A stretch of DNA of 64,000 nucleotides, taken from Gammaproteobacteria bacterium. GTDB taxonomy: Bacteria; Pseudomonadota; Gammaproteobacteria; JAJPIJ01. Within the stretch, counting starts at the first letter, position 1, and every line of letters starts with the position of its first letter. Of the stretch, positions 23,163-35,320 are shown in pieces. Position numbers and translations under genes: made by a program. The stretch is from positions 9,505 to 73,504 of the forward strand of contig JAJPIJ010000042.1 in the NCBI GenBank assembly GCA_021324815.1, given 5' to 3'. The notes under the pieces are model-generated. The model ran no database searches. It was not told where the DNA came from and was given only the letters and a program-made list of their open reading frames with translations.

Positions 23163-25646
23163 ATGAACAGGGAAAAGCTCGTGTTGGTCGGCAACGGCAT
23201 GGCCGGCGTGCGCACGCTGGAGGAGCTGCTGAAGCTCGCGCCAGACAAGTACGACGTCACCGTCTTCGGCGCCGAGCCGCACCCGAACTACAACCGCATC
23301 CTGCTGTCGCCGGTGCTGGCCGGCGAGAAGACCGTGGATCAGATCATCCTCAATGACGAGGCATGGTACGACGGGCACGGGATCACCCTGCACAAAGGCA
23401 GAATGGTCACGCGCATCGACCGCAGGCAGCGGCGCGTGCGCACGGCGGACGGACTGGAGGCCGCCTATGACCGGCTTATTCTGGCGACCGGCTCGCATCC
23501 CTTCATGCTGCCCGTCCCGGGGCGCGACCTGCCGGGCGTGGTGACCTTCCGCGACATCCACGACGTCGATCGCATGCTGGCGGCGGCGGCGCGGGGCGGC
23601 AGGGCGGTGGTCATCGGCGGGGGGCTGCTGGGCCTCGAAGCGGCGAGCGGCCTTTCCAAACGCGGCATGGACGTGACCGTGGTGCATCTGCTGGAGACGC
23701 TCATGGAGCGGCAACTCGATGCCGCCGCCGCGGCGCTGCTCAAACAATCGCTGGAAGCGCGCGGGATCAAGTTCCTCACCGGCCGCGAGACCCAGGCCAT
23801 ACTCGGCGATGATCATGTGCGCGGCGTGCGTTTCAAGCCTGCCCTGAGCAAAGTCGAAGGGGACGGCGGGGAGGTTGCCGCCGATCTGGTGGTGATGGCC
23901 GTCGGCATCAAGCCGAACATTGATCTGGCGAAGTCCGCGGGCCTGTACTGCGAGCGCGGCGTCATCGTCAACGACACCATGCAAACCTACGACCCCCGCA
24001 TCTACGCGGTCGGCGAATGCGTGCAGCACCGCGGCCGGAGCTACGGGCTGGTGGCGCCGCTCTTCGAGCAGGCCAGGGTCTGCGCCAATCATCTGGCCGA
24101 GCTCGGCTTCGCGCGCTACGGCGGCTCCGTCACCTCCACCAAGCTCAAGGTCACCGGCATCGATCTGTTTTCCGCCGGCGATTTTCAGGGCGGCGCCGGC
24201 ACCGAGGAGATCGTGCTCAAGGACGCCACCCGCGGCGTCTACAAGAAACTGGTGCTGAAGGACAACCGCATCGTCGGCGGCGTGCTGTACGGCGACACCG
24301 TCGACGGCTCGTGGTACTTCCAGTTGATGAAGGACGGCACCGACGTCGCGCACCTGCGCGATCATCTGCTGTTCGGCCAGGCGCATCTTGGCGATTCGGG
24401 CCACGGCGAGAAGGTGAGCCAGGTGGCGGCGATGCCGGACCACGCCGAGATCTGCGGCTGCAACGGCGTCTGCAAGGGCGCAATCGTCCGCGCCATCATC
24501 GATAGGAAGCTGTTCACGCTGGACGAAGTGCGCGCCCACACCAAGGCCTCGAGCTCCTGCGGCTCCTGCACCGGCCTGGTCGAGGAACTGCTGGCCTCGA
24601 CCGTCGGCGCCGATTACACGCAGACGCCCAAGACCCGGCCGCTGTGCCCCTGCACCCATTACACGCACGAGGAGGTGCGTCGCGCTATCCTCGACAACGA
24701 ACTCAAAACCATTCCCGCCGTGCGCGCGTTTATGGAATGGAAGACGCCGGACGGCTGCCACATCTGCCGGCCCGCGCTCAACTATTACCTGATTTGCGCC
24801 TGGCCGGGCGAATATGCGGACGACGCCCAGTCGCGCTTCATCAACGAGCGCGCCCACGCCAACATCCAGAAGGACGGCACCTACTCGGTGGTGCCGCGCA
24901 TCTGGGGCGGCATCACCAGCCCGCAGCAGTTGCGCGCCATCGCCGACGTCGCCGAGAAATACCGGGTGCCGACGGTGAAGATCACCGGCGGCCAGCGCAT
25001 CGATCTCCTGGGCGTGAAGAAGGAGGACCTGCCGAAGGTGTGGGGCGATCTCGCTGAAGCGGGCTTCGTCTCCGGCCATGCCTACGGCAAGGCGCTGCGC
25101 ACGGTCAAGACCTGCGTCGGCTCCGAGTGGTGCCGCTTCGGCACGCAGGACTCGACCACCATGGGCATCCGGCTGGAGAAAATGACCTGGGGCGCGTGGA
25201 CGCCGCACAAGGTCAAAATGGCGGTGTCCGGCTGCCCGCGCAACTGCGCCGAGGCCACCATCAAGGACTTCGGCGTGGTCGCCGTGGATTCCGGCTGGGA
25301 ACTGCACGTCGGCGGCAACGGCGGCGTCAAGGTGCGCGCCACCGATCTGTTGTGCAAGGTGGAAACCATGGAGGAGGTGGAGGAATACTGCGCCGCCTTT
25401 CTGCAGCTCTACCGCGAGGACGCGCGCTATCTCGAGCGCACCGCGCCCTGGATCGAGCGCGTGGGGCTTGAATTCGTCAGGAAATCCATCGTTGACGATG
25501 AGGAAAACCGCCGGCGCCTGGCGGCGCGGTTCCGCGATTCGCAGCAGCACGCGCAAAAGGATCCCTGGGCCGAGCGCGCCGCCGGCGTGCAGCGCCAGGA
25601 ATTTGCGCCGCTCAAGACCGTTCCGGCAGTCCGCGCGGTCGCGTAA
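23163..25646 (+). CDS. nirB: Assimilatory nitrite reductase [NAD(P)H] large subunit.
   Basis: The 827-aa protein has an FAD/NAD fold at the N-terminus (KLVLVGNGMAGVRTLEELL), BFD-like [2Fe-2S] Cys pairs, and siroheme/[4Fe-4S] cysteine clusters (..KTCVGSEWCRFG.. and ..SGCPRNCAEA..). An RBS (AAAGGAGG) precedes the ATG at 23163. The upstream in-frame extension to 22638 is an artefact. Confidence 0.9.
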   Translation: MNREKLVLVGNGMAGVRTLEELLKLAPDKYDVTVFGAEPHPNYNRILLSPVLAGEKTVDQIILNDEAWYDGHGITLHKGRMVTRIDRRQRRVRTADGLEAAYDRLILATGSHPFMLPVPGRDLPGVVTFRDIHDVDRMLAAAARGGRAVVIGGGLLGLEAASGLSKRGMDVTVVHLLETLMERQLDAAAAALLKQSLEARGIKFLTGRETQAILGDDHVRGVRFKPALSKVEGDGGEVAADLVVMAVGIKPNIDLAKSAGLYCERGVIVNDTMQTYDPRIYAVGECVQHRGRSYGLVAPLFEQARVCANHLAELGFARYGGSVTSTKLKVTGIDLFSAGDFQGGAGTEEIVLKDATRGVYKKLVLKDNRIVGGVLYGDTVDGSWYFQLMKDGTDVAHLRDHLLFGQAHLGDSGHGEKVSQVAAMPDHAEICGCNGVCKGAIVRAIIDRKLFTLDEVRAHTKASSSCGSCTGLVEELLASTVGADYTQTPKTRPLCPCTHYTHEEVRRAILDNELKTIPAVRAFMEWKTPDGCHICRPALNYYLICAWPGEYADDAQSRFINERAHANIQKDGTYSVVPRIWGGITSPQQLRAIADVAEKYRVPTVKITGGQRIDLLGVKKEDLPKVWGDLAEAGFVSGHAYGKALRTVKTCVGSEWCRFGTQDSTTMGIRLEKMTWGAWTPHKVKMAVSGCPRNCAEATIKDFGVVAVDSGWELHVGGNGGVKVRATDLLCKVETMEEVEEYCAAFLQLYREDARYLERTAPWIERVGLEFVRKSIVDDEENRRRLAARFRDSQQHAQKDPWAERAAGVQRQEFAPLKTVPAVRAVA

Positions 25647-25668
25647 TTGCGCGTGGAGTCGAAACAAC

Positions 25669-25725
25669 CCCTCTCCCCGGGACCTGCCTTGGGCGGCGTC
25701 GAAGGGGGAGGGGAAGGGTGGGGGG
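25669..25725. repeat. GGGAGAGGG-type palindromic REP-like element copy (G-rich) in the nirB-nirD spacer.
   Basis: CCCCTCTCCCCgggacctgccttgggcggcgtcgaaGGGGGAGGGGaagggtggggggg contains the CCCTCTCCCC / GGGGAGGGG inverted pair shared with copies at 27751-27840, 33028-33080 and 34064-34100. Confidence 0.5.
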
Positions 25726-26097
25726 GTGACGGTGAAAGAAAACTGGATCGAAATCGGGCCATTGCAGGATATCCCGCGGCTGGGCGCGCGGGTGGTGCGC
25801 ACGCCGCAAGGCGACATCGCCGTGTTCCGCGCCGCCGATGACGCCGTGTTCGCGCTCGACGATCGCTGCCCGCACAAGGGCGGGCCGCTGTCGCAGGGCA
25901 TCGTCTACGACCGCCGCGTGGCCTGCCCCCTGCACAACTGGGTGATTTCGCTGGAAAGCGGCGAGGCCACCGGCGCCGACAGGGGCTGCACCCGCCGTCA
26001 CGAGGTCAAAATCGAGAACGGCCGCATCCTGTTGCGGCTGGCCGCGGCGCACGGCGCCGGACCGGCGGCGGAGCCACGTTGCGCCTCCGCGCGGTAG
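25726..26097 (+). CDS. nirD: Nitrite reductase small subunit (Rieske-like).
   Basis: ...AVFRAADDAVFALDDRCPHKGGPLSQGIVYDRRVACPLHNWVISLESGEA... carries the CPH...CPLH Rieske-type motif of NirD. The start is a GTG after GAAGGGGGAGGGG. Confidence 0.8.
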   Translation: MTVKENWIEIGPLQDIPRLGARVVRTPQGDIAVFRAADDAVFALDDRCPHKGGPLSQGIVYDRRVACPLHNWVISLESGEATGADRGCTRRHEVKIENGRILLRLAAAHGAGPAAEPRCASAR

Positions 26098-26103
26098 CTT
26101 GAA

Positions 26104-28866
26104 ATGAGTGCCACAGCCGTCGCCACCACGTGCCCTTACTGCGGGGTGGGCTGCGGCGTTCTGGCCGAGCGCCGGCCGGACGGCGGCTGGCGGGTGCGCG
26201 GCGATCCGGACCATCCCGCCAATGCCGGCCGGCTGTGCTCCAAGGGCGCGGCGCTGGCGGAAACCCTGGACCTCGAGGACCGGCTGCTGCATCCCGAGCT
26301 GCGCGGGCGGCGCGTGTCATGGAATGTCGCGCTCGATCACGTCGCCGCGGAGTTCAAGCGCATCATCCAGGCGCACGGCCCGCAGGCCGTGGCCTTCTAT
26401 GTCTCCGGCCAGCTATTGACCGAGGATTATTACGTCGCCAACAAGCTGATGAAAGGCTACCTCGGCGCCGCCAACATCGACACCAACTCGCGGCTGTGCA
26501 TGTCCTCCAGCGTGGCCGGCCACCAGCGCGCCTTCGGCGCCGACGCGGTGCCGTGCAGCTACGCCGATCTGGAACTGGCCGATCTGCTGGTGCTGGTCGG
26601 CTCCAACGCCGCCTGGTGCCATCCGGTGCTGTGGCAGCGCATGTTGGAGTCACGCCGCGCCCGGCCGGAGGTGAAGATTGTCGTCATCGATCCACGCCGC
26701 ACCGCCACCGCCGCCGAGGCGGATTTGTTTCTGCCCCTCCGCTCCGGCACGGACACGATGCTGTTCAATGGCCTGCTGCACCACTTGAACCGGGAGTCGG
26801 CGCTCAACTGGAGTTTTCTCGAGCATCGCACCGAGGGCTACGCGGCGGCTTTCGCCGCCGCCCGCGACAGCGCGCCGTCGATCCCGGCGGTGGCCGCGGC
26901 CTGCGGACTGGACGCGGAGGACGTGGCACGGTTCTACCGCATGTTCACGCGCACCGAACGGGTGGTCACCTGCTATTCCCAGGGCGTCAACCAGTCCTCC
27001 AGCGGCACCGACAAGGTCAACAGCATCATCAACTGCCATCTTGCCACCGGTCGCATCGGCAGGCCGGGCATGGGGCCGTTCTCGCTCACCGGCCAGCCCA
27101 ACGCCATGGGCGGGCGCGAGGTCGGCGGTCTCGCCAATCAGCTGGCCGCGCACATGCACCTCGACAATCCCGATCACCGCGACTGCGTGCAGCGTTTCTG
27201 GAAATCGCCGGTGATCGCGCAAACGGCGGGATTGAAGGCCGTCGACATGTTCCGGGCCGTCGGCCGCGGCGAGATCAAGGCGGTGTGGATCATGGCCACC
27301 AACCCGGTGGTGAGCCTGCCCGACGCCGACGCCGTGCGCGCGGCGCTCGCCGGCTGCGAACTGGTGGTGGTTTCCGATTGCGTGCGCCACACCGACACCA
27401 CCGCGCTCGCGCACGTGCTGCTGCCGGCCCAGGCCTGGGGCGAGAAGGAGGGCACGGTGACCAACTCCGAGCGCCGCATCTCGCGCCAGCGCGCCTTCCT
27501 GGCGCCGCCGGGCGAGACCCGGCCGGACTGGTGGATCGTGAGTGAGGTGGCGCGCCGCATGGGCTTCGGCGACGCCTTCCGCTATCAAAGCGCCGCCGAC
27601 ATCTTCCGCGAGCATGCCGCGCTCAGCGCCTACGAGAATCACAATCGCCGCGATTTCGATCTGGGCGGGCTCGCCGGCATCGATGACGACAGCTACGACG
27701 CGCTGCGCCCGGTGCAGTGGCCTCTGCCTGCAGCCATGCGCGAGAGACTCCCTCTCCCCTTGCGGGAGAGGGCGGGGGGGAGGGGGAAACCATCCCCGGC
27801 TGACTCTCCACCCTCTCCCCGCAAGGGGGTGGGGGTCGAAAGCCGGGGCACCGCAAGGATGTTTGCGGACGGTCGCTTTTTCCATCCGGGCGGCCGGGCG
27901 CGCCTGGTGCCGATCCAGCCGCGGCCGCCCGCTTGCGCGCCTGATGAGGAATATCCATTGGCGCTCAACACCGGCCGCGTGCGCGACCACTGGCACACCA
28001 TGACGCGCACCGGCAAATCGGCGCGGCTGTCGGCACATGCGCCGGAGCCCTGCATCGACATCCATCCCGCCGATGCGGAGCGGTCAGGCCTGGTCAGAGA
28101 TCAACTCGCCTGCATCGAAAGCCGCTGGGGCAGCGCCGTCGGACGGGTCCGCATCAGCGACGCGCAGCGGCCGGGCGAAGTGTTCATGCCCATGCACTGG
28201 AATGATCAGTACGCAGCCAGGGCGCGCGTCGACGCCGTGGTGAATCCCGCCGTCGATCCGCATTCCGGCCAGCCGGAATTGAAGCATACGCCGGTGCGCA
28301 TCGCGCCGCTCAGGCCGGCGTGGGAGGCGGTGCTGTTCGGGGTCGCCGACCCGCCCGCGGAAAGCGCGCACTGGGTGCGGGTGCGCGGCAACGGCGGCGG
28401 GCGCGTGCACGCCGCCGGCCTCCAATGGCCGCGGGCGGGGCCGCCGGTCGCGGCGGGCTGGCTGCCGCCGCCGGCCCCCGGCGAGGAGCTGATCGAATAC
28501 GCGGACGTGGCCGCCGGCCGCTACCGCGCCGCGCTGCTGCGCGGCGGCCGGCTGCGCGCCTGCGTCTTTGCCATGCGCGGCGGCGATCTCCGTCCGCACA
28601 TCGAATGGCTGGACGGATTGATGGGACACCAGCAGCCGTTGAGCGTCGCTGATCGAATGGCGCTGCTGTCGGGCCAGCCCCCGCGCAACGGCGTCGACGC
28701 GGGCCCGCTGGTATGCGCATGTTTTGGCGTCGGTCGCAACACCATTCTCAAGGCGGCCAGGGACGGCTGCCGTTCGGTGGACGACATCGGTCGCGCGCTC
28801 AACGCCGGCAGCAACTGCGGCTCCTGCCGTGCCGAAATCCGCGAACTCCTCAATGCCGCATCGTGA
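26104..28866 (+). CDS. nasA: Assimilatory nitrate reductase catalytic subunit (molybdopterin oxidoreductase with a C-terminal BFD-like 2Fe-2S domain).
   Basis: N-terminal [4Fe-4S] motif TTCPYCGVGCGV is followed by MGD-binding folds. A C-terminal CACFGVG...CGSCRAEI BFD-like domain is present. The gene contains a roughly 38-codon in-frame repeat-derived insertion at 27737-27850. Confidence 0.9.
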   Translation: MSATAVATTCPYCGVGCGVLAERRPDGGWRVRGDPDHPANAGRLCSKGAALAETLDLEDRLLHPELRGRRVSWNVALDHVAAEFKRIIQAHGPQAVAFYVSGQLLTEDYYVANKLMKGYLGAANIDTNSRLCMSSSVAGHQRAFGADAVPCSYADLELADLLVLVGSNAAWCHPVLWQRMLESRRARPEVKIVVIDPRRTATAAEADLFLPLRSGTDTMLFNGLLHHLNRESALNWSFLEHRTEGYAAAFAAARDSAPSIPAVAAACGLDAEDVARFYRMFTRTERVVTCYSQGVNQSSSGTDKVNSIINCHLATGRIGRPGMGPFSLTGQPNAMGGREVGGLANQLAAHMHLDNPDHRDCVQRFWKSPVIAQTAGLKAVDMFRAVGRGEIKAVWIMATNPVVSLPDADAVRAALAGCELVVVSDCVRHTDTTALAHVLLPAQAWGEKEGTVTNSERRISRQRAFLAPPGETRPDWWIVSEVARRMGFGDAFRYQSAADIFREHAALSAYENHNRRDFDLGGLAGIDDDSYDALRPVQWPLPAAMRERLPLPLRERAGGRGKPSPADSPPSPRKGVGVESRGTARMFADGRFFHPGGRARLVPIQPRPPACAPDEEYPLALNTGRVRDHWHTMTRTGKSARLSAHAPEPCIDIHPADAERSGLVRDQLACIESRWGSAVGRVRISDAQRPGEVFMPMHWNDQYAARARVDAVVNPAVDPHSGQPELKHTPVRIAPLRPAWEAVLFGVADPPAESAHWVRVRGNGGGRVHAAGLQWPRAGPPVAAGWLPPPAPGEELIEYADVAAGRYRAALLRGGRLRACVFAMRGGDLRPHIEWLDGLMGHQQPLSVADRMALLSGQPPRNGVDAGPLVCACFGVGRNTILKAARDGCRSVDDIGRALNAGSNCGSCRAEIRELLNAAS
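27737..27850. repeat. REP-like palindromic element (two GGGAGAGGG-type hairpin units) inserted in-frame inside nasA.
   Basis: CCTCTCCCCttgcGGGAGAGG ... CCACCCTCTCCCCgcaaGGGGGTGGG reads through as ...AMRERLPLPLRERAGGRGKPSPADSPPSPRKGVGVESRGTA... The same motif family occurs in intergenic regions elsewhere in the window. Confidence 0.55.
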
Positions 28867-29105
28867 ATTCCATGCGGATGGAAGCTCGGTGTTCACTGAC
28901 GGGCCGGCAACTTTCAGGAGAATCTGATGCAGCGCAAACGAAGTGTTTCATCGCCTGCCAATTGACTTGAGCAGGCAGTTCCATAAGAATTGCCCGTCAG
29001 GGTGAGTCAGACGCGGCCGGGCATTGGCTTGCGTCGCCATAATCAACCAAAATCGAGCGGATAGGGGAGTGTTTCGGCTGTTTCTGACCGAAACAAGCAA
29101 ACCAC

Positions 29106-30350
29106 ATGATGAGTCGCGGCTCCCGTTCAACAACCTTGACCTCCTTACGCCGCACCGTACTCGCCGCCTTCTGCATATCAAGTCTCGCCGTGTCCGCCGG
29201 CGGCGAACCCAATATCGTCGAGCCCAAGTACCCCGCGCCCGCCGAGCCCCCCGTGCTGCCGCCTCCCACCCCGGAACCGGCGTCCCAAGGGGTGCTTCCA
29301 CCCCCGGCCGCCGAAACGCCTCCGTCCGCGCCCGGCGCCCCACCGGCCCAGTCCGAGGCAGCGGCTCCCGCCGCGCCGGCCGGCAATGGGCCGCAGCCCA
29401 CGGCCGCCACCGAGGGCGCCGCCGGCGCGGCAGTCGCGCCCGCCGAGCCGGAATCTGACGAGCCACCGCCCACGGCCAAGCCCGGCGAGTGTTATGCCCG
29501 CGTCAACATACCGCCCGAGGTGGTGACCGTGCAGGAACAGGTGCTCAAGCACGAGGCCTATCAGAAAGTCGAGGTCGTTCCGCCCGTTTTCCAGACCACG
29601 GAGGAGACCGTGCTGGTGAAGGATGCCTCCAAGCGCATCGAGGTCGTCCCGGCGGAATACGAAACCAAGACCGAGCAGGTGCTGGTGCGCCCCGCCACGA
29701 CCCGCCTGGAAATCGTTCCGGCGGAGTATGAGGAAGTGAAGGAGCAGGTCCTGGTGCGCGCCGGCTACAACAAGTGGGAGAAATGCCCGCCGACGGGCGG
29801 CAAGAGCAGGAAAACCAGGGGAGAGAACGATGACACGGAAGTGCTCTGCCTGGTGGAAGTACCCCCCGAGTATCAGACCGTGACCAAACAGGTGGTGAAA
29901 AAACCGGAGACGACGCGCCAGGTGACGGTGCCCGCCGAATACACCACCGTGACCAGGAGCGTGCTGAAAACCCCGGCGACGACGCGCGAGGTGGATGTGC
30001 CGGCGGAATACAAGAAAGTGCTCGTCACCAAGGAGGTGAGTCCGGCGCGGGAAGTGAAAGTGGACGTGCCGGCGGAATACGAGACGGTGACGCGCTTGAA
30101 GCGCATCAACAACGGGCGCATCGAGTGGCGTTCAATCCTCTGCCGCGCCGACGCCACGCCGGCGAAGATCATGGAGATCCAGAAGGCGCTGAAAGAGGCC
30201 GGCTACGATCCCGGCAAGATTGACGGCGTGCTCAGCACCAGGACGTTCGCGGCGATCTACGCCTATCAAAAAGCCAAGAATCTGCCGCAAGACTACGGCA
30301 ATTATCTCAACATCGACACCGTCAACGCGCTCGGCATCCAGCCGCATTAA
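29106..30350 (+). CDS. Secreted or lipid-anchored tandem-repeat protein with a Pro/Ala-rich linker and a C-terminal peptidoglycan-binding (PG_binding_1-like) domain.
   Basis: The protein has a signal peptide and a PAPAEPPVLPPPTPEP... low-complexity region. About eight 22-24-aa repeats of the type VPAEYxTVTxxVLxxPATTRxV follow. The C-terminal ...IMEIQKALKEAGYDPGKIDGVLSTRTFAAIYAYQKAKNLPQDG... resembles PG_binding_1. Confidence 0.7.
   Translation: MMSRGSRSTTLTSLRRTVLAAFCISSLAVSAGGEPNIVEPKYPAPAEPPVLPPPTPEPASQGVLPPPAAETPPSAPGAPPAQSEAAAPAAPAGNGPQPTAATEGAAGAAVAPAEPESDEPPPTAKPGECYARVNIPPEVVTVQEQVLKHEAYQKVEVVPPVFQTTEETVLVKDASKRIEVVPAEYETKTEQVLVRPATTRLEIVPAEYEEVKEQVLVRAGYNKWEKCPPTGGKSRKTRGENDDTEVLCLVEVPPEYQTVTKQVVKKPETTRQVTVPAEYTTVTRSVLKTPATTREVDVPAEYKKVLVTKEVSPAREVKVDVPAEYETVTRLKRINNGRIEWRSILCRADATPAKIMEIQKALKEAGYDPGKIDGVLSTRTFAAIYAYQKAKNLPQDYGNYLNIDTVNALGIQPH
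29505..30110 (+). repeat. Tandem coding repeats (about 69-nt units, roughly 8 copies) within the PG-binding repeat protein gene.
   Basis: Recurrent GT(G/C)CC(G/C)GCGGAATAC(G/A)A... units encode VPAEY-type repeats. Confidence 0.6.
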
Positions 30351-30431
30351 GCAGTCCCCGCGCGATACCCGCGGCCCCCGGTTTCCGGCCGCTGAAATCC
30401 GCGGACTCCACAACTCCCTTTCCTCACACCG

Positions 30432-31661
30432 TCAGAACAGCGTCACCACAACCGAGGCGCCGACGCACAGAACGACCACGGCGATGGGCGGCACGCGCCA
30501 CCGCTCGAGCAGCAGCAGACCCGCCGCGGCGATGATCACGTCCCGGTAATCGCGCACGGAGGTCGTCCACACGGGGTTGTACAGCGCCGCGCCCAGCACG
30601 CCCACCACGGCGGCGTTGACGCCGGCCAGCGCCCCTTTCGCCGGCGGGGCGGCGTTGATGAGCGCCCACAGGCGCAGGCCGGCGACGGCGATCAAAAGAC
30701 CCGGCAGGAACATGAAACCGAGCGCAACGGCCGCGCCGGGCAGCATGCTTCCGTGGGGCGCGGTCACGGCGCCGAGGTAGGCGGCGACCGCGAACAACGG
30801 TCCCGGCATCGCCTGGGCGAAGCCGTAGCCGGCGAGGAAGGCGTCGTCCGTCATCCAGCCGCCCGGCACCAGCGCGTCACGCAGCAACGGCAGCACCACG
30901 TGCCCGCCGCCGAACACCAGCGCCCCGGCGCGGTAAAAAATATCCGCCAGCGCCGTCATCCCGCCGGGCGTCGACGCCGCCGCCAGCGGCAGGCCCGCCA
31001 GCAGGATGAGAAACAGCGCCAGCGCCGCTCCGGCGGCGCGATTGCCGATGGAACCGTGCAGGCGCACGGCCGGCCCGCGCACGTTCCGGCACCAGATCAG
31101 GCCGCCGACAGCGCCCAGAACAAGGACCCCCATCTGCATCAAGGTCCCGCCGTTGAACAATAATATGGCCATCGCCGTGACGGCGATGAGCGCGCGGGCG
31201 GGATCGGGGCAGAGTCGCCGCGCCATGCTCAAGACCGCCTGCGCCACGACCGCGACCGCCACCAGCTTGAGGCCGTGCAGCACGCCGCCCATCATCGAGT
31301 CCTGCACCCTGGGCGCGTACACCGCGAAAAGATACATCAGCAGCGCGGACGGCAGCGTGAAACCCAGAAAGGCCGCGATCGCGCCGGGCCATCCCGCGCG
31401 GCGGAGTCCGATTAGAAAGCCGACCTGGCTGCTGGCGGGGCCGGGCAGCAACTGGCAGAGCGCCACCAGCCCCGCGTATTCCTCCGCGCTAAGCCAGCGC
31501 CGCCGTTGGACGTAAGTGCGCTCGTAGTAGCCCAGATGCGCGATCGGCCCGCCGAACGAGGTCAGACCGAGCTTGAGCGCCTCGATCAGGACCTCCGCGG
31601 CACAGCCTTTCCCGGCGGTAATGCTCCGCGTGTCGCTTGCTTGGCGCGCGTCATCATTCAC
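30432..31661 (-). CDS. chrA: Chromate efflux transporter ChrA (CHR family).
   Basis: The 409-aa protein has duplicated CHR halves (...LKLGLTSFGGPIAHLGYYERTYVQRRRWLSAEEYAGLVALCQLLPGPASSQVG... and ...FYRAGALVFGGGHVVLPLL...). Confidence 0.85.
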   Translation of the reverse strand: MNDDARQASDTRSITAGKGCAAEVLIEALKLGLTSFGGPIAHLGYYERTYVQRRRWLSAEEYAGLVALCQLLPGPASSQVGFLIGLRRAGWPGAIAAFLGFTLPSALLMYLFAVYAPRVQDSMMGGVLHGLKLVAVAVVAQAVLSMARRLCPDPARALIAVTAMAILLFNGGTLMQMGVLVLGAVGGLIWCRNVRGPAVRLHGSIGNRAAGAALALFLILLAGLPLAAASTPGGMTALADIFYRAGALVFGGGHVVLPLLRDALVPGGWMTDDAFLAGYGFAQAMPGPLFAVAAYLGAVTAPHGSMLPGAAVALGFMFLPGLLIAVAGLRLWALINAAPPAKGALAGVNAAVVGVLGAALYNPVWTTSVRDYRDVIIAAAGLLLLERWRVPPIAVVVLCVGASVVVTLF

Positions 31662-31724
31662 GGAGTCATCTTAGAACAAATGGAGGTACGCCCCCAATGT
31701 GTACCGGCTGTTCGTGAAAATTTT

Positions 31725-32936
31725 CTACTCGGTTTTGGGATCGGGAATGCGGGTGAAGGCGATGCGCAACGGCGCCTCGCGCAGGGCGCGGTGGGCGCCG
31801 CCGAAGTAAACCGCGTTCTTGCCATGGCGCAGATTGAGTTTGTCGAGGCTCGCGGTGAGCGCGGCGCGCCTCGGCTCCTCGTCAAATAATCCAGGCGTGT
31901 GATGGGCCGCGTCCACCAGATTGAGCATGGTTACGCCCACGCGCATGAGTTTCGTGCGCAGCCGCGGACGCTGCTCCCACAGCGCGTTCAGGGCATGAAT
32001 TAATTCCAGCGTGTCCTGCGTCTCGCCGATGCGCATTTCCGTGTGCCAGCGCCGGCCTTCTGCGTAACTCAAGCCCAACGCCATGCCGGCGGCGTAGTAG
32101 CCCTGTTTGCGCAGCCGCATCGCCGCCTTTTGCGTCAGCCGGTGCAACACGGCGAAGGCGTCCTTGTCATTGCGCAAATCCGGCGGCAGGACATGCGAAT
32201 GGCCGAGCGTCACCTGCCCGGCGTGGGCCCGGCGCTCGACGCGTTCGCCGCGCAACTGCCGCCAGAATCGCTCGCCCTCGACGCCGCCCCAGACGTTGCG
32301 AAGTTTTTCCTTGCTCGCGTTGCATAACTTCTCGACGCTGGTGATACCGTGTTTGCGCAGCCGCGCCTCCATGCGCGGGCCGATGCCGTAGAGATCGCGC
32401 AGTTCGAGGCCGTACAGCGCCTGGGGGAGGGCATCGGGTTCGATGACCGTCAAGCCATCAGGTTTTTGCATGTCGCTCGCGGTCTTGGCGATGAAGACAT
32501 TGGGGCCGATGCCGATGGAGCACTTGAGGTACGGACTCACCTCTTTGGCGATGCTTTGCTTGACGCGCTTGGCCAGCGCCTCGGCGGTCGCGCGCTCGCG
32601 CCAACTGCCGGTGAGCTCGCACCACATCTCGTCGATGGACATCACCTCGGCGACCGGCGCGCAGCGCTCGACCGCGTCGATCAGTTTGTAGTGATACTCC
32701 ACATAGGTTTCATGCCGGGCCGGTACTATTTGCAGATCAGGGCACAGGCGCCTGGCGTCGCTGACGCGCGTGCCGGTCTTGACGCCATAGGCCCTGGCCT
32801 CGTAGCTCGCGGCGATTCAGCAGGTGGTGTCGGCCATCACCGGCACGACGGCCACGGGGCGGCCGCGCAGCTCTTCCTTTTCCGCCTGCTCCACGGAGGC
32901 GAAGTAGGAATTGAAATCCAGGAACAGCACGTTCAT
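31725..32936 (-). pseudogene. Y-family DNA polymerase (DinB/ImuB-like) disrupted by a single in-frame TGA at codon 40.
   Basis: The ATG at 32936 gives MNVLFLDFNSYFASVEQAEKEELRGRPVAVVPVMADTTC, then TGA at 32817-32819. The same frame continues as IAASYEARAYGVKTG...SIDEMWCELTG... to the stop at 31725. Total length (about 403 codons) fits an intact Y-family polymerase. Confidence 0.65.
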
Positions 32937-33027
32937 GCAATCAAGGTAGCACAACAGATATGTATCGAAGTAACAGGTTGATTCAAAACGTCACGAGACA
33001 GCCAGGTGACAGTGGAAAATGGGAAAT

Positions 33028-33080
33028 CCCTCACCCGCTCACGCCGCCCTCTCCCGCAGCAGAGGAATCACTCGCGGGGG
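33028..33080. repeat. GGGAGAGGG-type REP-like element copy (degenerate) at the 3' end of the YVTN gene.
   Basis: CCCTCACCCgctcacgccgCCCTCTCCCGCagcagaggaatcactcGCGGGGGG shares the CCCTCTCCCGC core with the other copies. Confidence 0.35.
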
Positions 33081-34030
33081 GCGATGAAAAGGCCGAAGGC
33101 CCGGCTGCCGTTTCCCGTTTTTATGCTTTGCGTGATTTCGAGGGTTTCGGTGTCGATCATATCCAGTTGATCGCCGAACCAGTTGGCGACGGCGACGCGC
33201 CGGCCGCCCGGCTCCAGCATGATGCCTTCCGGATAGCCGCTGACGTCGAGGGTCTTGATGACGGTGTTGGTCCTGAGATCGATCACCGACACGGTGTCGT
33301 CGTGCTGGTTGGTGACGAACAAATGTTGATGCACTGGATCGACGGCACTGGCGTAGGGGAACTCCTGCACGCCGACGGTAGCAGTGACTTTCAAGGTCGT
33401 AGCGTCGATGATGCTGATGCTGTTGTTCTGCACGTTTGCGGCGTAGAGCGTTTTGTCATCCGGTGACACAGTCACACCGAACGGCGCCTTGCCGGTCTGT
33501 ATCAGCGCTAGTTGTTTGTAGCTCCTCGTGTCGAACACGGCAAGATTGTTGTCATCGCGGTTGGTGACATACACGCGCGTGCCCTTGCTGTTGTAGGCGA
33601 TGCCGGAGGGCGACCTGCCGGTCGGGAAGGTCCTGGTAACGGCGAGTTTCCGGGTGTCAATGACGAATATCCTGTCGTCATACCAATCGGCCACCAACAG
33701 TGGATTGCCGCTGGGATGCAGGGCGATGCCGAGCGGCCCGCTGCCCGCGGGAATCGTCGCGATGACTTTTTGCGCGGCGGGGTCGATGACGGAAACAGTT
33801 TTGCCGACGGGGTTGGTGACATAAACACGGCTGTTGTCCGCCGCCGCCGCGACACCGGCCGGTTTCTCGCCGACCTTGATGGTGGCGATGGATTTGTTTT
33901 GCGCCAGATCAACGACCGAAATGGTGTTATCACCTTGATTGGTGACGTAGGCGAACGGCGCAGCCGGACTCGATTGCATCAGCAAAGACGCAGCGAGCGC
34001 TACCATTGGCATCGATCGGTGTGGCGTCAT
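33068..34030 (-). CDS. Secreted YVTN-family beta-propeller repeat protein.
   Basis: The 320-aa protein has a signal peptide and repeated ~40-aa units with YVTN/YVAN cores (..RVYVTNPVGKTVSVID.., ..TRVYVTNRDDNNLAVFD.., ..HLFVTNQHDDTVSVID..). Confidence 0.8.
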   Translation of the reverse strand: MTPHRSMPMVALAASLLMQSSPAAPFAYVTNQGDNTISVVDLAQNKSIATIKVGEKPAGVAAAADNSRVYVTNPVGKTVSVIDPAAQKVIATIPAGSGPLGIALHPSGNPLLVADWYDDRIFVIDTRKLAVTRTFPTGRSPSGIAYNSKGTRVYVTNRDDNNLAVFDTRSYKQLALIQTGKAPFGVTVSPDDKTLYAANVQNNSISIIDATTLKVTATVGVQEFPYASAVDPVHQHLFVTNQHDDTVSVIDLRTNTVIKTLDVSGYPEGIMLEPGGRRVAVANWFGDQLDMIDTETLEITQSIKTGNGSRAFGLFIAPRE

Positions 34031-34063
34031 AAATTAGGAAAATTACAGCAAATCATTCAAGCC

Positions 34064-34100
34064 CGCCCACCCTGGCCCTCTCCCGCGAGGGGAGAGGGTG
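34064..34100. repeat. GGGAGAGGG-type REP-like palindrome (CCCTCTCCCGCGAGGGGAGAGGG) adjacent to a terminator.
   Basis: The near-perfect inverted repeat CCCaCCCtggCCCTCTCCCgcgaGGGGAGAGGGtg is in the intergenic space between the YVTN and SRPBCC genes. Confidence 0.5.
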
Positions 34101-34103
34101 CAA

Positions 34104-34140
34104 TAAAAAACCCGCTCCACCTTGCGATAGAGCGGGTTTG
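34104..34140 (-). terminator. Rho-independent terminator for the minus-strand SRPBCC gene.
   Basis: The minus strand reads AAACCCGCTCtatcgcaaggtgGAGCGGGTTTTTTATTG, a 7-8 bp GC-rich stem followed by a T6 run, 20 nt after the stop at 34160. Confidence 0.75.
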
Positions 34141-34159
34141 TTCTGACAACAATCCAAAA

Positions 34160-34705
34160 TTACTTCCCGCCGGCAAACAGGGCCTTGATCTTGCCGAGTC
34201 CGGCGTCGTAGATGCCGTTGATGGCGCTGGTCGCGGCCTCGTCGTCCTGGCCCTTCTTGGGATTGTTGGTGGGATCGACGCGATAAAAGCCGCCTTTCCA
34301 CGTGACCCTGGAGCCGCCCTTGCCGTCATCCTCGACCTGGATCTGCGAGGCGTAGTTGGCGACCGGCACCACGGCGGGGTCAACCTTGGTGATCTTGTAC
34401 TTGTAGAACATCTTGGCGTCATCGTACTTCAGCAATTCCTCGTCGATGGTTGGCCCCGTGTTGGGATCGTTCAGGCGCAGTTCGCGGGTGGCGCCGACGG
34501 CATTGCCGCCGCTGCCGGTGCACTTGGCGACCGCGGGATGCCATTTTTCGATGGCGCAGAAATCCTTGAGCAGTCCCCAGACCTTGGCCGGCGGGGCGTT
34601 GACGTCGACTTCCTTCTCCACCTTGAGGCGCGAGGGGCCGTGGGCCAGCGCCAGGGCGGGGGTGAGCAGCAGGGTGACAGCGAGGGACTTCAAAATCTTG
34701 GACAT
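34160..34705 (-). CDS. Secreted SRPBCC (Bet v1-like / polyketide cyclase-dehydrase fold) protein.
   Basis: The 181-aa protein has a signal peptide (MSKILKSLAVTLLLTPALALAHG) and an SRPBCC-like core (..VWGLLKDFCAIEKWHPAVAKC...). The longer N-terminal extension to 34900 is rejected. Confidence 0.65.
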   Translation of the reverse strand: MSKILKSLAVTLLLTPALALAHGPSRLKVEKEVDVNAPPAKVWGLLKDFCAIEKWHPAVAKCTGSGGNAVGATRELRLNDPNTGPTIDEELLKYDDAKMFYKYKITKVDPAVVPVANYASQIQVEDDGKGGSRVTWKGGFYRVDPTNNPKKGQDDEAATSAINGIYDAGLGKIKALFAGGK

Positions 34706-34813
34706 GACTCTCTCCATTCGGTGATGATTCAAGTTGTCTGGCGGCTGATGGGTCGCCGTGGGCGCATCATTGTACTGAAAATCAACCACCGTGGGTTGGA
34801 GTCGGCTTTGTTC

Positions 34814-35320
34814 ATGGGGTTCCGTGGATTTTTGATTGCCGCGCTGTTCGCTTCCGCGGCCTGGGCGCAGCCGCCGGAGCAGGCCATGCTGGCGGTTCAA
34901 ACCGCTGCCGGCGGGCGCGTCGAATTTCAGGTCGAAATCGCCGACACGCCGGGCAGGCGCCAGCAGGGACTGATGTCCCGCCGCGCGCTGGCCGGAAATG
35001 CCGGCATGCTGTTCATATTCGGGGAGGTCGGGCCGGTGTCGATGTGGATGAAGGGCACGTTGTTGTCGCTGGACGTGCTGTTTATCGACGATGACGGGCG
35101 CATCGTCCGCATTGCGCCCGAGACCTCGCCGGAATCGACGGCCTTGATTCCATCGGGCAAGCCGGTGCGGGCGGTGCTGGAGATCAACGCCGGCGTTTGC
35201 CGCCGGCTCGGCATCCGCGTAGGCGATCAGATCGACAGGGGCGCGCTCAGGGCCTGGTGGCCGGCGCCGTCAGCGCCGCAAACGCGGTACCGAAGCCCTT
35301 CAGCGATAGCGGCACCTTGA
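34814..35320 (+). CDS. DUF192 (COG1430) family secreted protein.
   Basis: A signal peptide (MGFRGFLIAALFASAAWAQP) is followed by ..FQVEIADTPGRRQQGLMSRRALAGNAGMLFIF...MWMKGTLLSLDVLFIDDDGRIV...AVLEINAG..., characteristic of DUF192. The 602-aa ORF-track entry is antisense readthrough of the YVTN gene except for this C-terminal segment. Confidence 0.7.
   Translation: MGFRGFLIAALFASAAWAQPPEQAMLAVQTAAGGRVEFQVEIADTPGRRQQGLMSRRALAGNAGMLFIFGEVGPVSMWMKGTLLSLDVLFIDDDGRIVRIAPETSPESTALIPSGKPVRAVLEINAGVCRRLGIRVGDQIDRGALRAWWPAPSAPQTRYRSPSAIAAP

Follow-up and report, generated by a model that had tools for sequence, protein, structure and literature searches.

The DNA analysed here, referred to below as the window, is a 64,000-nucleotide stretch from a Gammaproteobacteria bacterium (contig JAJPIJ010000042.1 of assembly GCA_021324815.1, positions 9,505 to 73,504) that contains a nirB-nirD-nasA cluster, in which nirB ends at 25646, nirD occupies 25723-26097 and nasA, the last gene, runs from 26104 to 28866 on the plus strand; within nasA lies a G/C-rich palindromic segment that is translated in frame and forms the subject of this work. 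The product of 26104-28866 is the NADH-type assimilatory nitrate reductase NasA, an intact catalytic subunit of 920 amino acids, which follows from its Pfam domains (Molybdop_Fe4S4, Molybdopterin, Molydop_binding and the C-terminal Fer2_BFD, a BFD-like [2Fe-2S] domain), from the identity of its best solved relative, NapA of D. desulfuricans (E = 4.6e-109), and from the position of the gene after nirB and nirD. An earlier note on this DNA, made from the sequence alone, called nasA essential, which is too strong a term given that the gene is only conditionally needed.

Comparison of the window NasA with its 119 best database homologues, along with a codon alignment and the local confidence of a structural model, delimits the variable or inserted segment to 37 codons (27736-27846, plus strand; M545-R581, MRER...ESR), where L002, the closest insert-free relative (83% amino acid identity), has 5 codons (DLSSS), that is, 111 nt vs 15 nt. 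The net gain, accordingly, is +96 nt, or 32 codons, in frame and with zero stops, and the open frame across the insert translates as ...AMRERLPLPLRERAGGRGKPSPADSPPSPRKGVGVESRGTA.... A slice of the alignment spanning the site comprises 83 residues in the window protein vs 46-52 residues in 114 homologues and 54-60 in another five, so the insert is missing from all but a few of the 119 homologues. The two closest relatives, both about 83% identical to the window protein, differ at this position, with no extension in L002/P0003 and 8 additional residues in L004/P0002, and two further homologues, P0004 and P0007, have extensions of 7-11 residues that are free of the motif. The two hairpins, their sequence and their open, in-frame translation inside nasA are all present as the earlier note described them, and the comparison of orthologues that it called for agrees with its view of an extra segment; the 38 residues that it counted between PVQWP and RMFADGRFF are actually 44, about 32 of them extra.

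Short-read assemblers cope badly with short palindromes rich in G and C, and the source is apparently metagenome-derived, so an artefact of assembly or binning, in which a repeat-induced chimera put intergenic repeat DNA into nasA, has to be considered. The identical NasA protein, however, is recorded in NCBI, JGI and ENA, on 7 contigs, and P0122, a distinct allele from a different run (SRR5579885), shows a few residue changes elsewhere and an unchanged insert; because of these independent records, mis-assembly at the insert is very unlikely, and the concern that the earlier note raised in this respect finds no support. With the reading frame kept, the length of the insert a multiple of 3 and both flanks collinear with the orthologues, a chimeric origin is barely credible.

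The segment consists of two units. Unit 1 (27750-27784, plus strand), located with a regular expression, matches with 0 mismatches the published TM_ECO pattern, CCCTCNCCC N3-6 GGGNGAGGG N3 GGGNGAGGG with at most one mismatched triplet (Holder et al. 2015, PMC4666352), which specifies 27 bases; it includes a C-arm (27750-27758), a loop (27759-27763), a first G-arm (27764-27772), a second loop (CGG, 27773-27775) and a second G-arm (27776-27784), with the hairpin CCCTCTCCC-cttgc-GGGAGAGGG at 27750-27772. Unit 2 (27799-27837, minus strand), recognised from inverted-repeat pairs and predicted folds, is the decayed inverted partner of unit 1, with the arms CCCTCTCCC (27811-27819) and GGGGGTGGG (27825-27833) and the hairpin CCCTCTCCCC-gcaa-GGGGGTGGG spanning 27811-27833. 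The two units, inverted relative to each other and 38 nt apart, point their tails inward and form a doublet. When one mismatch per arm and loops of 3-30 nt are permitted, the 64-kb window contains 3 such hairpins, compared with a mean of 0.03 and a maximum of 1 in 200 dinucleotide shuffles.

Holder et al. (2015, PMC4666352) recount how the BoxC repeat of E. coli was renamed the PIT element and later TM_ECO, an intrastrand-triplex motif, with 3610 copies in 262 proteobacterial genomes, some of them arranged as inverted pairs; they report inverted doublets as a regular configuration of TM_ECO and its absence from Salmonella. A further trait of the family is that its G-rich strand folds in vitro into a stable intrastrand triplex of the purine motif. 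The nasA segment 27736-27846 is a copy of this BoxC/PIT/TM_ECO family of interspersed G/C-rich palindromic repeats. The doublet also has the features of a miniature inverted-repeat transposable element (MITE), namely, a size below 200 bp (84-92 nt between the outer edges), terminal inverted repeats (TIRs) and no coding capacity for a transposase. Membership in the classical REP family was considered and rejected because the units begin with GACTCCCTC... or CCACCCTC... and have no GT[AG]G head, that is, neither GTAG nor GTGG; the label 'REP-like' in the earlier note therefore holds insofar as it denotes an extragenic-type palindromic repeat and fails as a family assignment. A search of Rfam with positions 25000-35000 yielded only sub-threshold matches to animal miRNA precursors (at most 31 bits vs gathering thresholds of at least 70) and no known RNA family. 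Of the six frames of the TM motif, as we call the shared pattern here, no more than one can contain a stop (GGG TGA GGG), and the nasA copy contains none, its second G-arm in unit 1 being GGGGGAGGG instead of the usual GGGTGAGGG; the nasA frame stays open due to these two properties.

The whole 114-nt segment folds as one long imperfect hairpin of about 92 nt, with pairing across 27746-27837, and its predicted folding energy is -73.7 kcal/mol as RNA (z = -3.8, none of 200 shuffles being equally good) and -32 kcal/mol as DNA (z = -2.1). On the sense strand, 27764-27786 reads GGGAGAGGGCGGGGGGGAGGGGG, a series of four G-runs that fits a G-quadruplex motif; in the nasA mRNA, such a structure would be in competition with the hairpin. 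Conceivably, the element is kept for a function, either as an mRNA hairpin or G-quadruplex that pauses ribosomes between the folding units of NasA, as a means of tuning expression or mRNA stability, or as a peptide linker. Besides the stability of the RNA hairpin, this possibility is favoured by the G3-N3-G3-N1-G7-N1-G5 run on the sense strand, a type of sequence that Kaplan et al. 2016 describe as a G-quadruplex/hairpin switch, by the presence of a TM unit at the nasA site in two lineages, in the same frame, and by a second unit that immediately precedes the start of nirD, within this operon. We consider a retained function rather unlikely all the same: L002 and more than 110 other orthologues lack the insert, unit 2 is decaying, the encoded peptide is predicted to be disordered, and earlier work on PIT elements, to the extent that Holder et al. 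(PMC4666352) relay it, detected no promoter or terminator activity and no regulatory pattern.

The AlphaFold2 model of NasA, built with 76 homologues, has a mean predicted local distance difference test score (pLDDT) of 89.6 and a predicted template-modelling score of 0.90, and it superimposes on the NapA structures (2v45) with a target-normalised template-modelling score of 0.89. The only segment with pLDDT below 50, residues 553-578, is inside the insert, which is located between the Molybdopterin-core Pfam domain (ending at residue 484) and the Molydop_binding domain (starting at residue 619), in a loop that varies in length among orthologues and is longer in NapA. Every residue that is invariant in the homologue alignment is kept in the window NasA. 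The model being confident everywhere except in the insert, the latter is most likely a tolerated, disordered loop; the 32 extra residues, rich in Pro, Gly and Arg, would protrude from the surface of a functional enzyme, and the inserted DNA itself is probably selfish or neutral rather than adaptive. The in-frame, tolerated loop that the earlier note proposed, and for which it recommended modelling of the structure, is thus upheld by the predicted low-confidence region in a site of variable length, the predicted match of the fold to NapA, the retention of invariant residues and the orthologues without the segment. An alternative is that the insertion inactivated nasA, leaving a pseudogene in which the frame happens to be open, and some gene decay does occur in the region, where a neighbouring dinB-like gene has a premature stop. 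Given that a frame of 920 codons is open, that all invariant residues are conserved, that the insert falls in a variable loop away from the cofactor and Fe-S sites and that the second allele keeps the frame, inactivation seems quite improbable.

The TM motif is not confined to the window. When one genome per species was scanned for CCCTCTCCC-N3-6-GGGAGAGGG, at least 120 loci from many phyla emerged, the source genome not being among them; the scan shows the breadth of the distribution rather than the copy number, and single matches in distant phyla may be due to chance. The sequence NN(N)GGG(T/A)GAGGG comes after the hairpin at most of the 120 listed loci. When long open frames running through the hairpins at these loci were sought and five of them were checked against Pfam, in all five the hairpin was found in frame within a conserved gene, with Pfam domains flanking it on both sides. 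These genes encode NAD-dependent DNA ligase (LigA; L125:3173-6157, minus strand), valyl-tRNA synthetase (ValS; L120:2558-5464, minus), in which the in-frame doublet is much like that of nasA, isoleucyl-tRNA synthetase (IleS; L099:3574-6435, minus), a large terminase (L077:1676-4003, plus) and, in the metagenome-assembled genome of an uncultured betaproteobacterium, methionyl-tRNA synthetase (MetG; L029:1777-4515, minus), with two in-frame hairpins. Overall, about 7 of the 162 hairpins at the listed loci are in frame in conserved genes, so that in-frame TM copies are uncommon but recurrent. The nasA copy is not intergenic, whereas the other copies in the window are, and because further in-frame copies reside in LigA, ValS, IleS, MetG and the terminase, an intergenic location looks like a tendency of the BoxC/TM family rather than a defining rule. 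In the literature searched, there is no report of in-frame insertion for this family; for MITE-like elements in general, such insertion is documented, the Rickettsia palindromic elements (RPEs) being the extreme case (PMC10969869). The nasA insertion, which the earlier note presented as a rare kind of event, is indeed uncommon, but rarity was overstated in view of the RPE precedent and of the same motif in frame in five other genes.

The MetG gene of L029 offers a further feature: a complete DUF559 domain (amino acids 671-780, E = 1.2e-32) is inserted between the anticodon-binding and tRNA_bind domains and is bracketed by the TM hairpins at amino acids 622-629 and 794-801, all within one open frame, and translation of this essential enzyme appears to include an entire endonuclease element. 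A DUF559 gene is present within 450 nt of a hairpin at 6 of the 120 listed loci (L025, L029, L064, L075, L082 and L093), usually between two hairpins, and in E. coli K-12 a TM-like hairpin overlies the 3' end of the DUF559 gene ycjD (L128:5205-5419), with a full unit about 170 nt downstream. The association was also evident from the opposite direction: among 80 metagenome loci (L129-L208) picked solely by similarity to DUF559 proteins, with a 2-sequence alignment as the query, a TM hairpin lies no more than 200 nt from the gene in 69, and hairpins are present on both sides in 40. The density of hairpins at these loci is 4.63 per kb within 200 nt of the gene and 0.092 beyond, a 50-fold difference. 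Of the units upstream of the DUF559 gene, 39 of 42 have their third arm on the side facing the gene, as do 36 of the 39 units downstream of it; from outer edge to outer edge, the elements have a median length of 433 bp, and they end in inverted repeats of 35-38 nt, loops included. The TM-DUF559-TM arrangement, which is common in metagenomes and genomes, has the architecture of a minimal TIR-bounded element, with putative mobility. No publication linking DUF559 or ycjD to BoxC/TM repeats or to mobility was found in the literature searched, which may miss some work.

The E. coli ycjD region showed a peculiarity of its own. When the fabI-ycjD-sapF region of K-12 was compared with complete E. coli genomes, the best match covered less than 80% of the region in about 2,080 of the 5,426 genomes; in ten such genomes among the matches listed, the match breaks off some 40 nt short of the TM unit that follows ycjD in 10 of 10 (L128:5160-5245), and the pieces of the query have a median of 4 matching places per genome. 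These breaks fit TM units marking the boundaries of rearrangements.

Among adjacent hairpin pairs in the sample of listed loci, 29 of the 35 that could be oriented are inverted and 6 are tandem, and the inverted pairs divide into 16 with tails inward, separated by gaps of 37-96 nt, and 13 with tails outward; a rule that gene-less doublets always have their tails inward, which we considered, is only weakly supported by this count. The nasA doublet, with its inward tails and 38-nt gap, looks like a gene-less form of the DUF559 element. Under the mechanism that we envisage, doublets of this kind would be gene-less, MITE-like derivatives of DUF559 elements of about 430 bp, in which a Vsr-like PD-(D/E)XK nuclease is the sole gene product, and they might be moved by an enzyme supplied in trans or be copied when cleaved DNA is repaired. 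Very probably, the nasA insert is a BoxC/PIT/TM_ECO doublet that entered the gene in frame and is tolerated as a loop; it may also be a MITE-like derivative of a DUF559 element. The BoxC/PIT motif has lacked an account of its origin and mechanism of mobility since the 1990s. We tentatively put forward, as a broader proposal that may well turn out to be wrong, that this motif is the TIR of a minimal, very widespread and selfish element of about 430 bp with DUF559 as its sole gene, that single and double TM units, including the nasA doublet and the BoxC doublets of E. coli, are its MITE-like offspring, and that these have colonised genes in frame across phyla.

Several observations weigh against this reading of the nasA insert as a whole. 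In unit 2, the third arm (about 27799-27810) is degenerate, and in the sample above, tails-outward pairs are nearly as frequent as the tails-inward ones among gene-less pairs. No target-site duplication was detected at 11 boundaries of DUF559 elements, and in the codon alignment there is likewise no direct repeat of this kind at the boundaries of the nasA insert; a tblastn search with the DUF559 domain found nothing significant in the 64-kb window or in the flanks of the relatives, and in E. coli no mobility genes were found near TM_ECO (Holder et al. 2015, PMC4666352). The protein collection contains no empty-site allele closer than 83% identity, and the case for insertion accordingly derives from divergent relatives and not from a before/after pair. 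Finally, the divergence at synonymous sites weakly suggests that L004, the relative with 8 additional residues, falls outside the pair formed by the window and L002, and since L004 carries a TM unit at the same site, this placement would entail either that L002 has lost its unit or that one site was hit twice, independently.

Some of these points bear on another explanation, under which the loop extension is home-grown, a lineage-specific, low-complexity expansion by slippage or template switching, within a variable loop rich in G and C, that merely resembles the repeat family. The absence of a target-site duplication is compatible with it, as are the varying loop length among orthologues and the motif-free extensions in P0004 and P0007, and replication slippage at these motifs has been proposed (Holder et al. 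2015, PMC4666352). Slippage, however, is not expected to produce a 35-nt match, free of mismatches, to a pattern with 27 specified bases, and near-identical hairpins are found at unlinked intergenic sites both in the window and in L004, and in-frame copies of the family occur in unrelated bacteria, in genes that are likewise unrelated; a home-grown origin is, in our judgement, unlikely.

The history of the insert as a BoxC/TM copy can be partly traced through L004. At L004:11625-11659, and at the same site in L005, nasA contains one complete minus-strand TM unit, CCCTCACCC-ccag-CCCCTCTCCC-ggc-GGGAGAGGGG, which has the same orientation and codon phase (CCC TCT CCC = PSP) as unit 2 of the window and lies at a distance from the downstream GGC-ACN anchor that agrees with that of unit 2 to within one codon; an intergenic TM copy is also present in L004 (15742-15777). 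The divergence at four-fold degenerate sites is 0.24 between the window and L002, 0.29 between the window and L004 and 0.30 between L002 and L004. The nasA site may either have been occupied before the lineages split, in which case L002 would have lost its unit while the old unit of the window decayed and unit 1 arrived later, or be a hotspot that has been hit repeatedly. In the former case, a single minus-oriented unit, such as that in L004, would have come first, and the perfect, plus-oriented unit 1 would have been added later in the lineage of the window. The earlier note held that orthologues from unrelated genera with a homologous segment at this position would tell against a repeat insertion, and L004 (83% identity), with its unit at the same site, answers to this in part. 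The L004 segment, however, has the canonical form of the repeat, and for that reason neither contradicts the assignment nor argues for a native loop.

Altogether, the window holds 4-5 TM sites, and the three intergenic places where the earlier note had seen the same motif family do harbour it, at 25669-25718, 33028-33058 (in part) and 34064-34098, the copies differing among themselves in the second loop and the second G-arm. The first of these, identified by comparison of the repeats, with the nirD start placed by alignment, is a plus-strand, TM-like unit whose first loop is expanded; it lies in the spacer between nirB and nirD (25647-25722), which measures 76 nt in the window vs 6 nt in L002 and L004. 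Its G-rich arms, GGGGGAGGGGAAGGGTGGGGGGG, finish a few bases upstream of the GTG start of nirD (25723) and could serve as a ribosome-binding site. The unit at 34064-34098 (minus strand), found by pattern match and comparison of the repeats, has 2 mismatches to the pattern and a hairpin 96% identical to that of unit 1 in nasA; it adjoins a hairpin that resembles a terminator (AAAAAACCCGCTC...GAGCGGGTTTGTT, 34107-34140), with T-rich sequence to either side, and the composite region, 34064-34140, sits between a Polyketide_cyc2 gene and a beta-propeller gene. The partial unit at 33028-33058 (minus strand) retains the first G-arm, the loop and the GGGTGAGGG tail, with 15 of 15 nt identical to unit 1, and has lost the C-arm.

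Other peculiarities of the region were noted in passing. The gene for a DinB/IMS-family polymerase (31728-32936, minus strand) is 90% identical to its L002 counterpart over all 403 codons, in one frame, and contains an in-frame TGA at codon 40 (32817-32819), where L002 reads F-C-I and the window T-T-C-*-I; this TGA is due to a nonsense mutation or to an error in sequencing, or it marks a pseudogene. The gene for a PG_binding_1 protein has three 69-nt (23-codon) tandem repeats and that for a YNCE-like beta-propeller protein has a 126-nt periodicity (29922-30089 and 33278-33955); both look like ordinary protein repeats.

Taken alone, the nasA case is a further example of selfish palindromic DNA absorbed as a disordered protein loop, one that adds translated copies to a BoxC/TM family described as always intergenic. 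The recurrence of in-frame copies, in a DNA ligase and three aminoacyl-tRNA synthetases, indicates that this family may be a general and overlooked origin of inserted loops and odd annotations where genomes are GC-rich. That whole TM units bracket DUF559 genes tightly and in a set orientation provides a testable account of the spread of the repeat and suggests a function for a large domain family.

Among the known systems, BoxC/PIT/TM_ECO shares with the nasA element the sequence pattern, the inverted doublets, the absence of a recognisable mobility gene and local variation by insertion and deletion; the family is interspersed and multi-copy, and several dispersed copies are present within the window. 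In E. coli K-12, these repeats are reported to be invariably intergenic (Holder et al., PMC4666352), in contrast to the nasA copy, which is translated within a conserved enzyme, and the host here is an uncultured, GC-rich gammaproteobacterium rather than an enterobacterium. The RPEs (Ogata et al. 2000, via PMC10969869) are comparable in being selfish palindromic repeats of about 100-150 nt that occur in frame in unrelated housekeeping genes, where they are tolerated because they land in surface regions, as is probably true of the nasA insert. The RPEs differ from the nasA element in that they encode conserved peptides, are largely confined to Rickettsia and presumably belong to an unrelated family, whereas the nasA motif is found in many phyla; the likeness is functional only. 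With REP/REPIN elements, the nasA element has in common the form of short extragenic palindromes, an inverted doublet of about 100 nt, which in REPIN elements is the mobile unit, and a single-copy enzyme gene flanked by repeats. REP/REPIN elements are reportedly mobilised by RAYT transposases. They have, unlike the nasA element, the GT[AG]G head, and the flanked gene here encodes a DUF559 PD-(D/E)XK nuclease, a member of another enzyme superfamily; no association of the nasA element with a Y1 transposase was seen, no search aimed at RAYT having been made in the window. Intragenic ERIC/RU repeats are known in enterobacteria (Delihas 2007, PMC2759123, where BoxC is not mentioned), and these repeats and MITEs resemble the nasA element as small, non-autonomous inverted-repeat elements with open frames and in-frame fusions with host genes; the ERIC/RU repeats belong to another sequence family, and the target-site duplication is wanting at nasA. 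Compared with these systems, the nasA event joins two known kinds, the BoxC/TM repeat and the in-frame palindromic insert.

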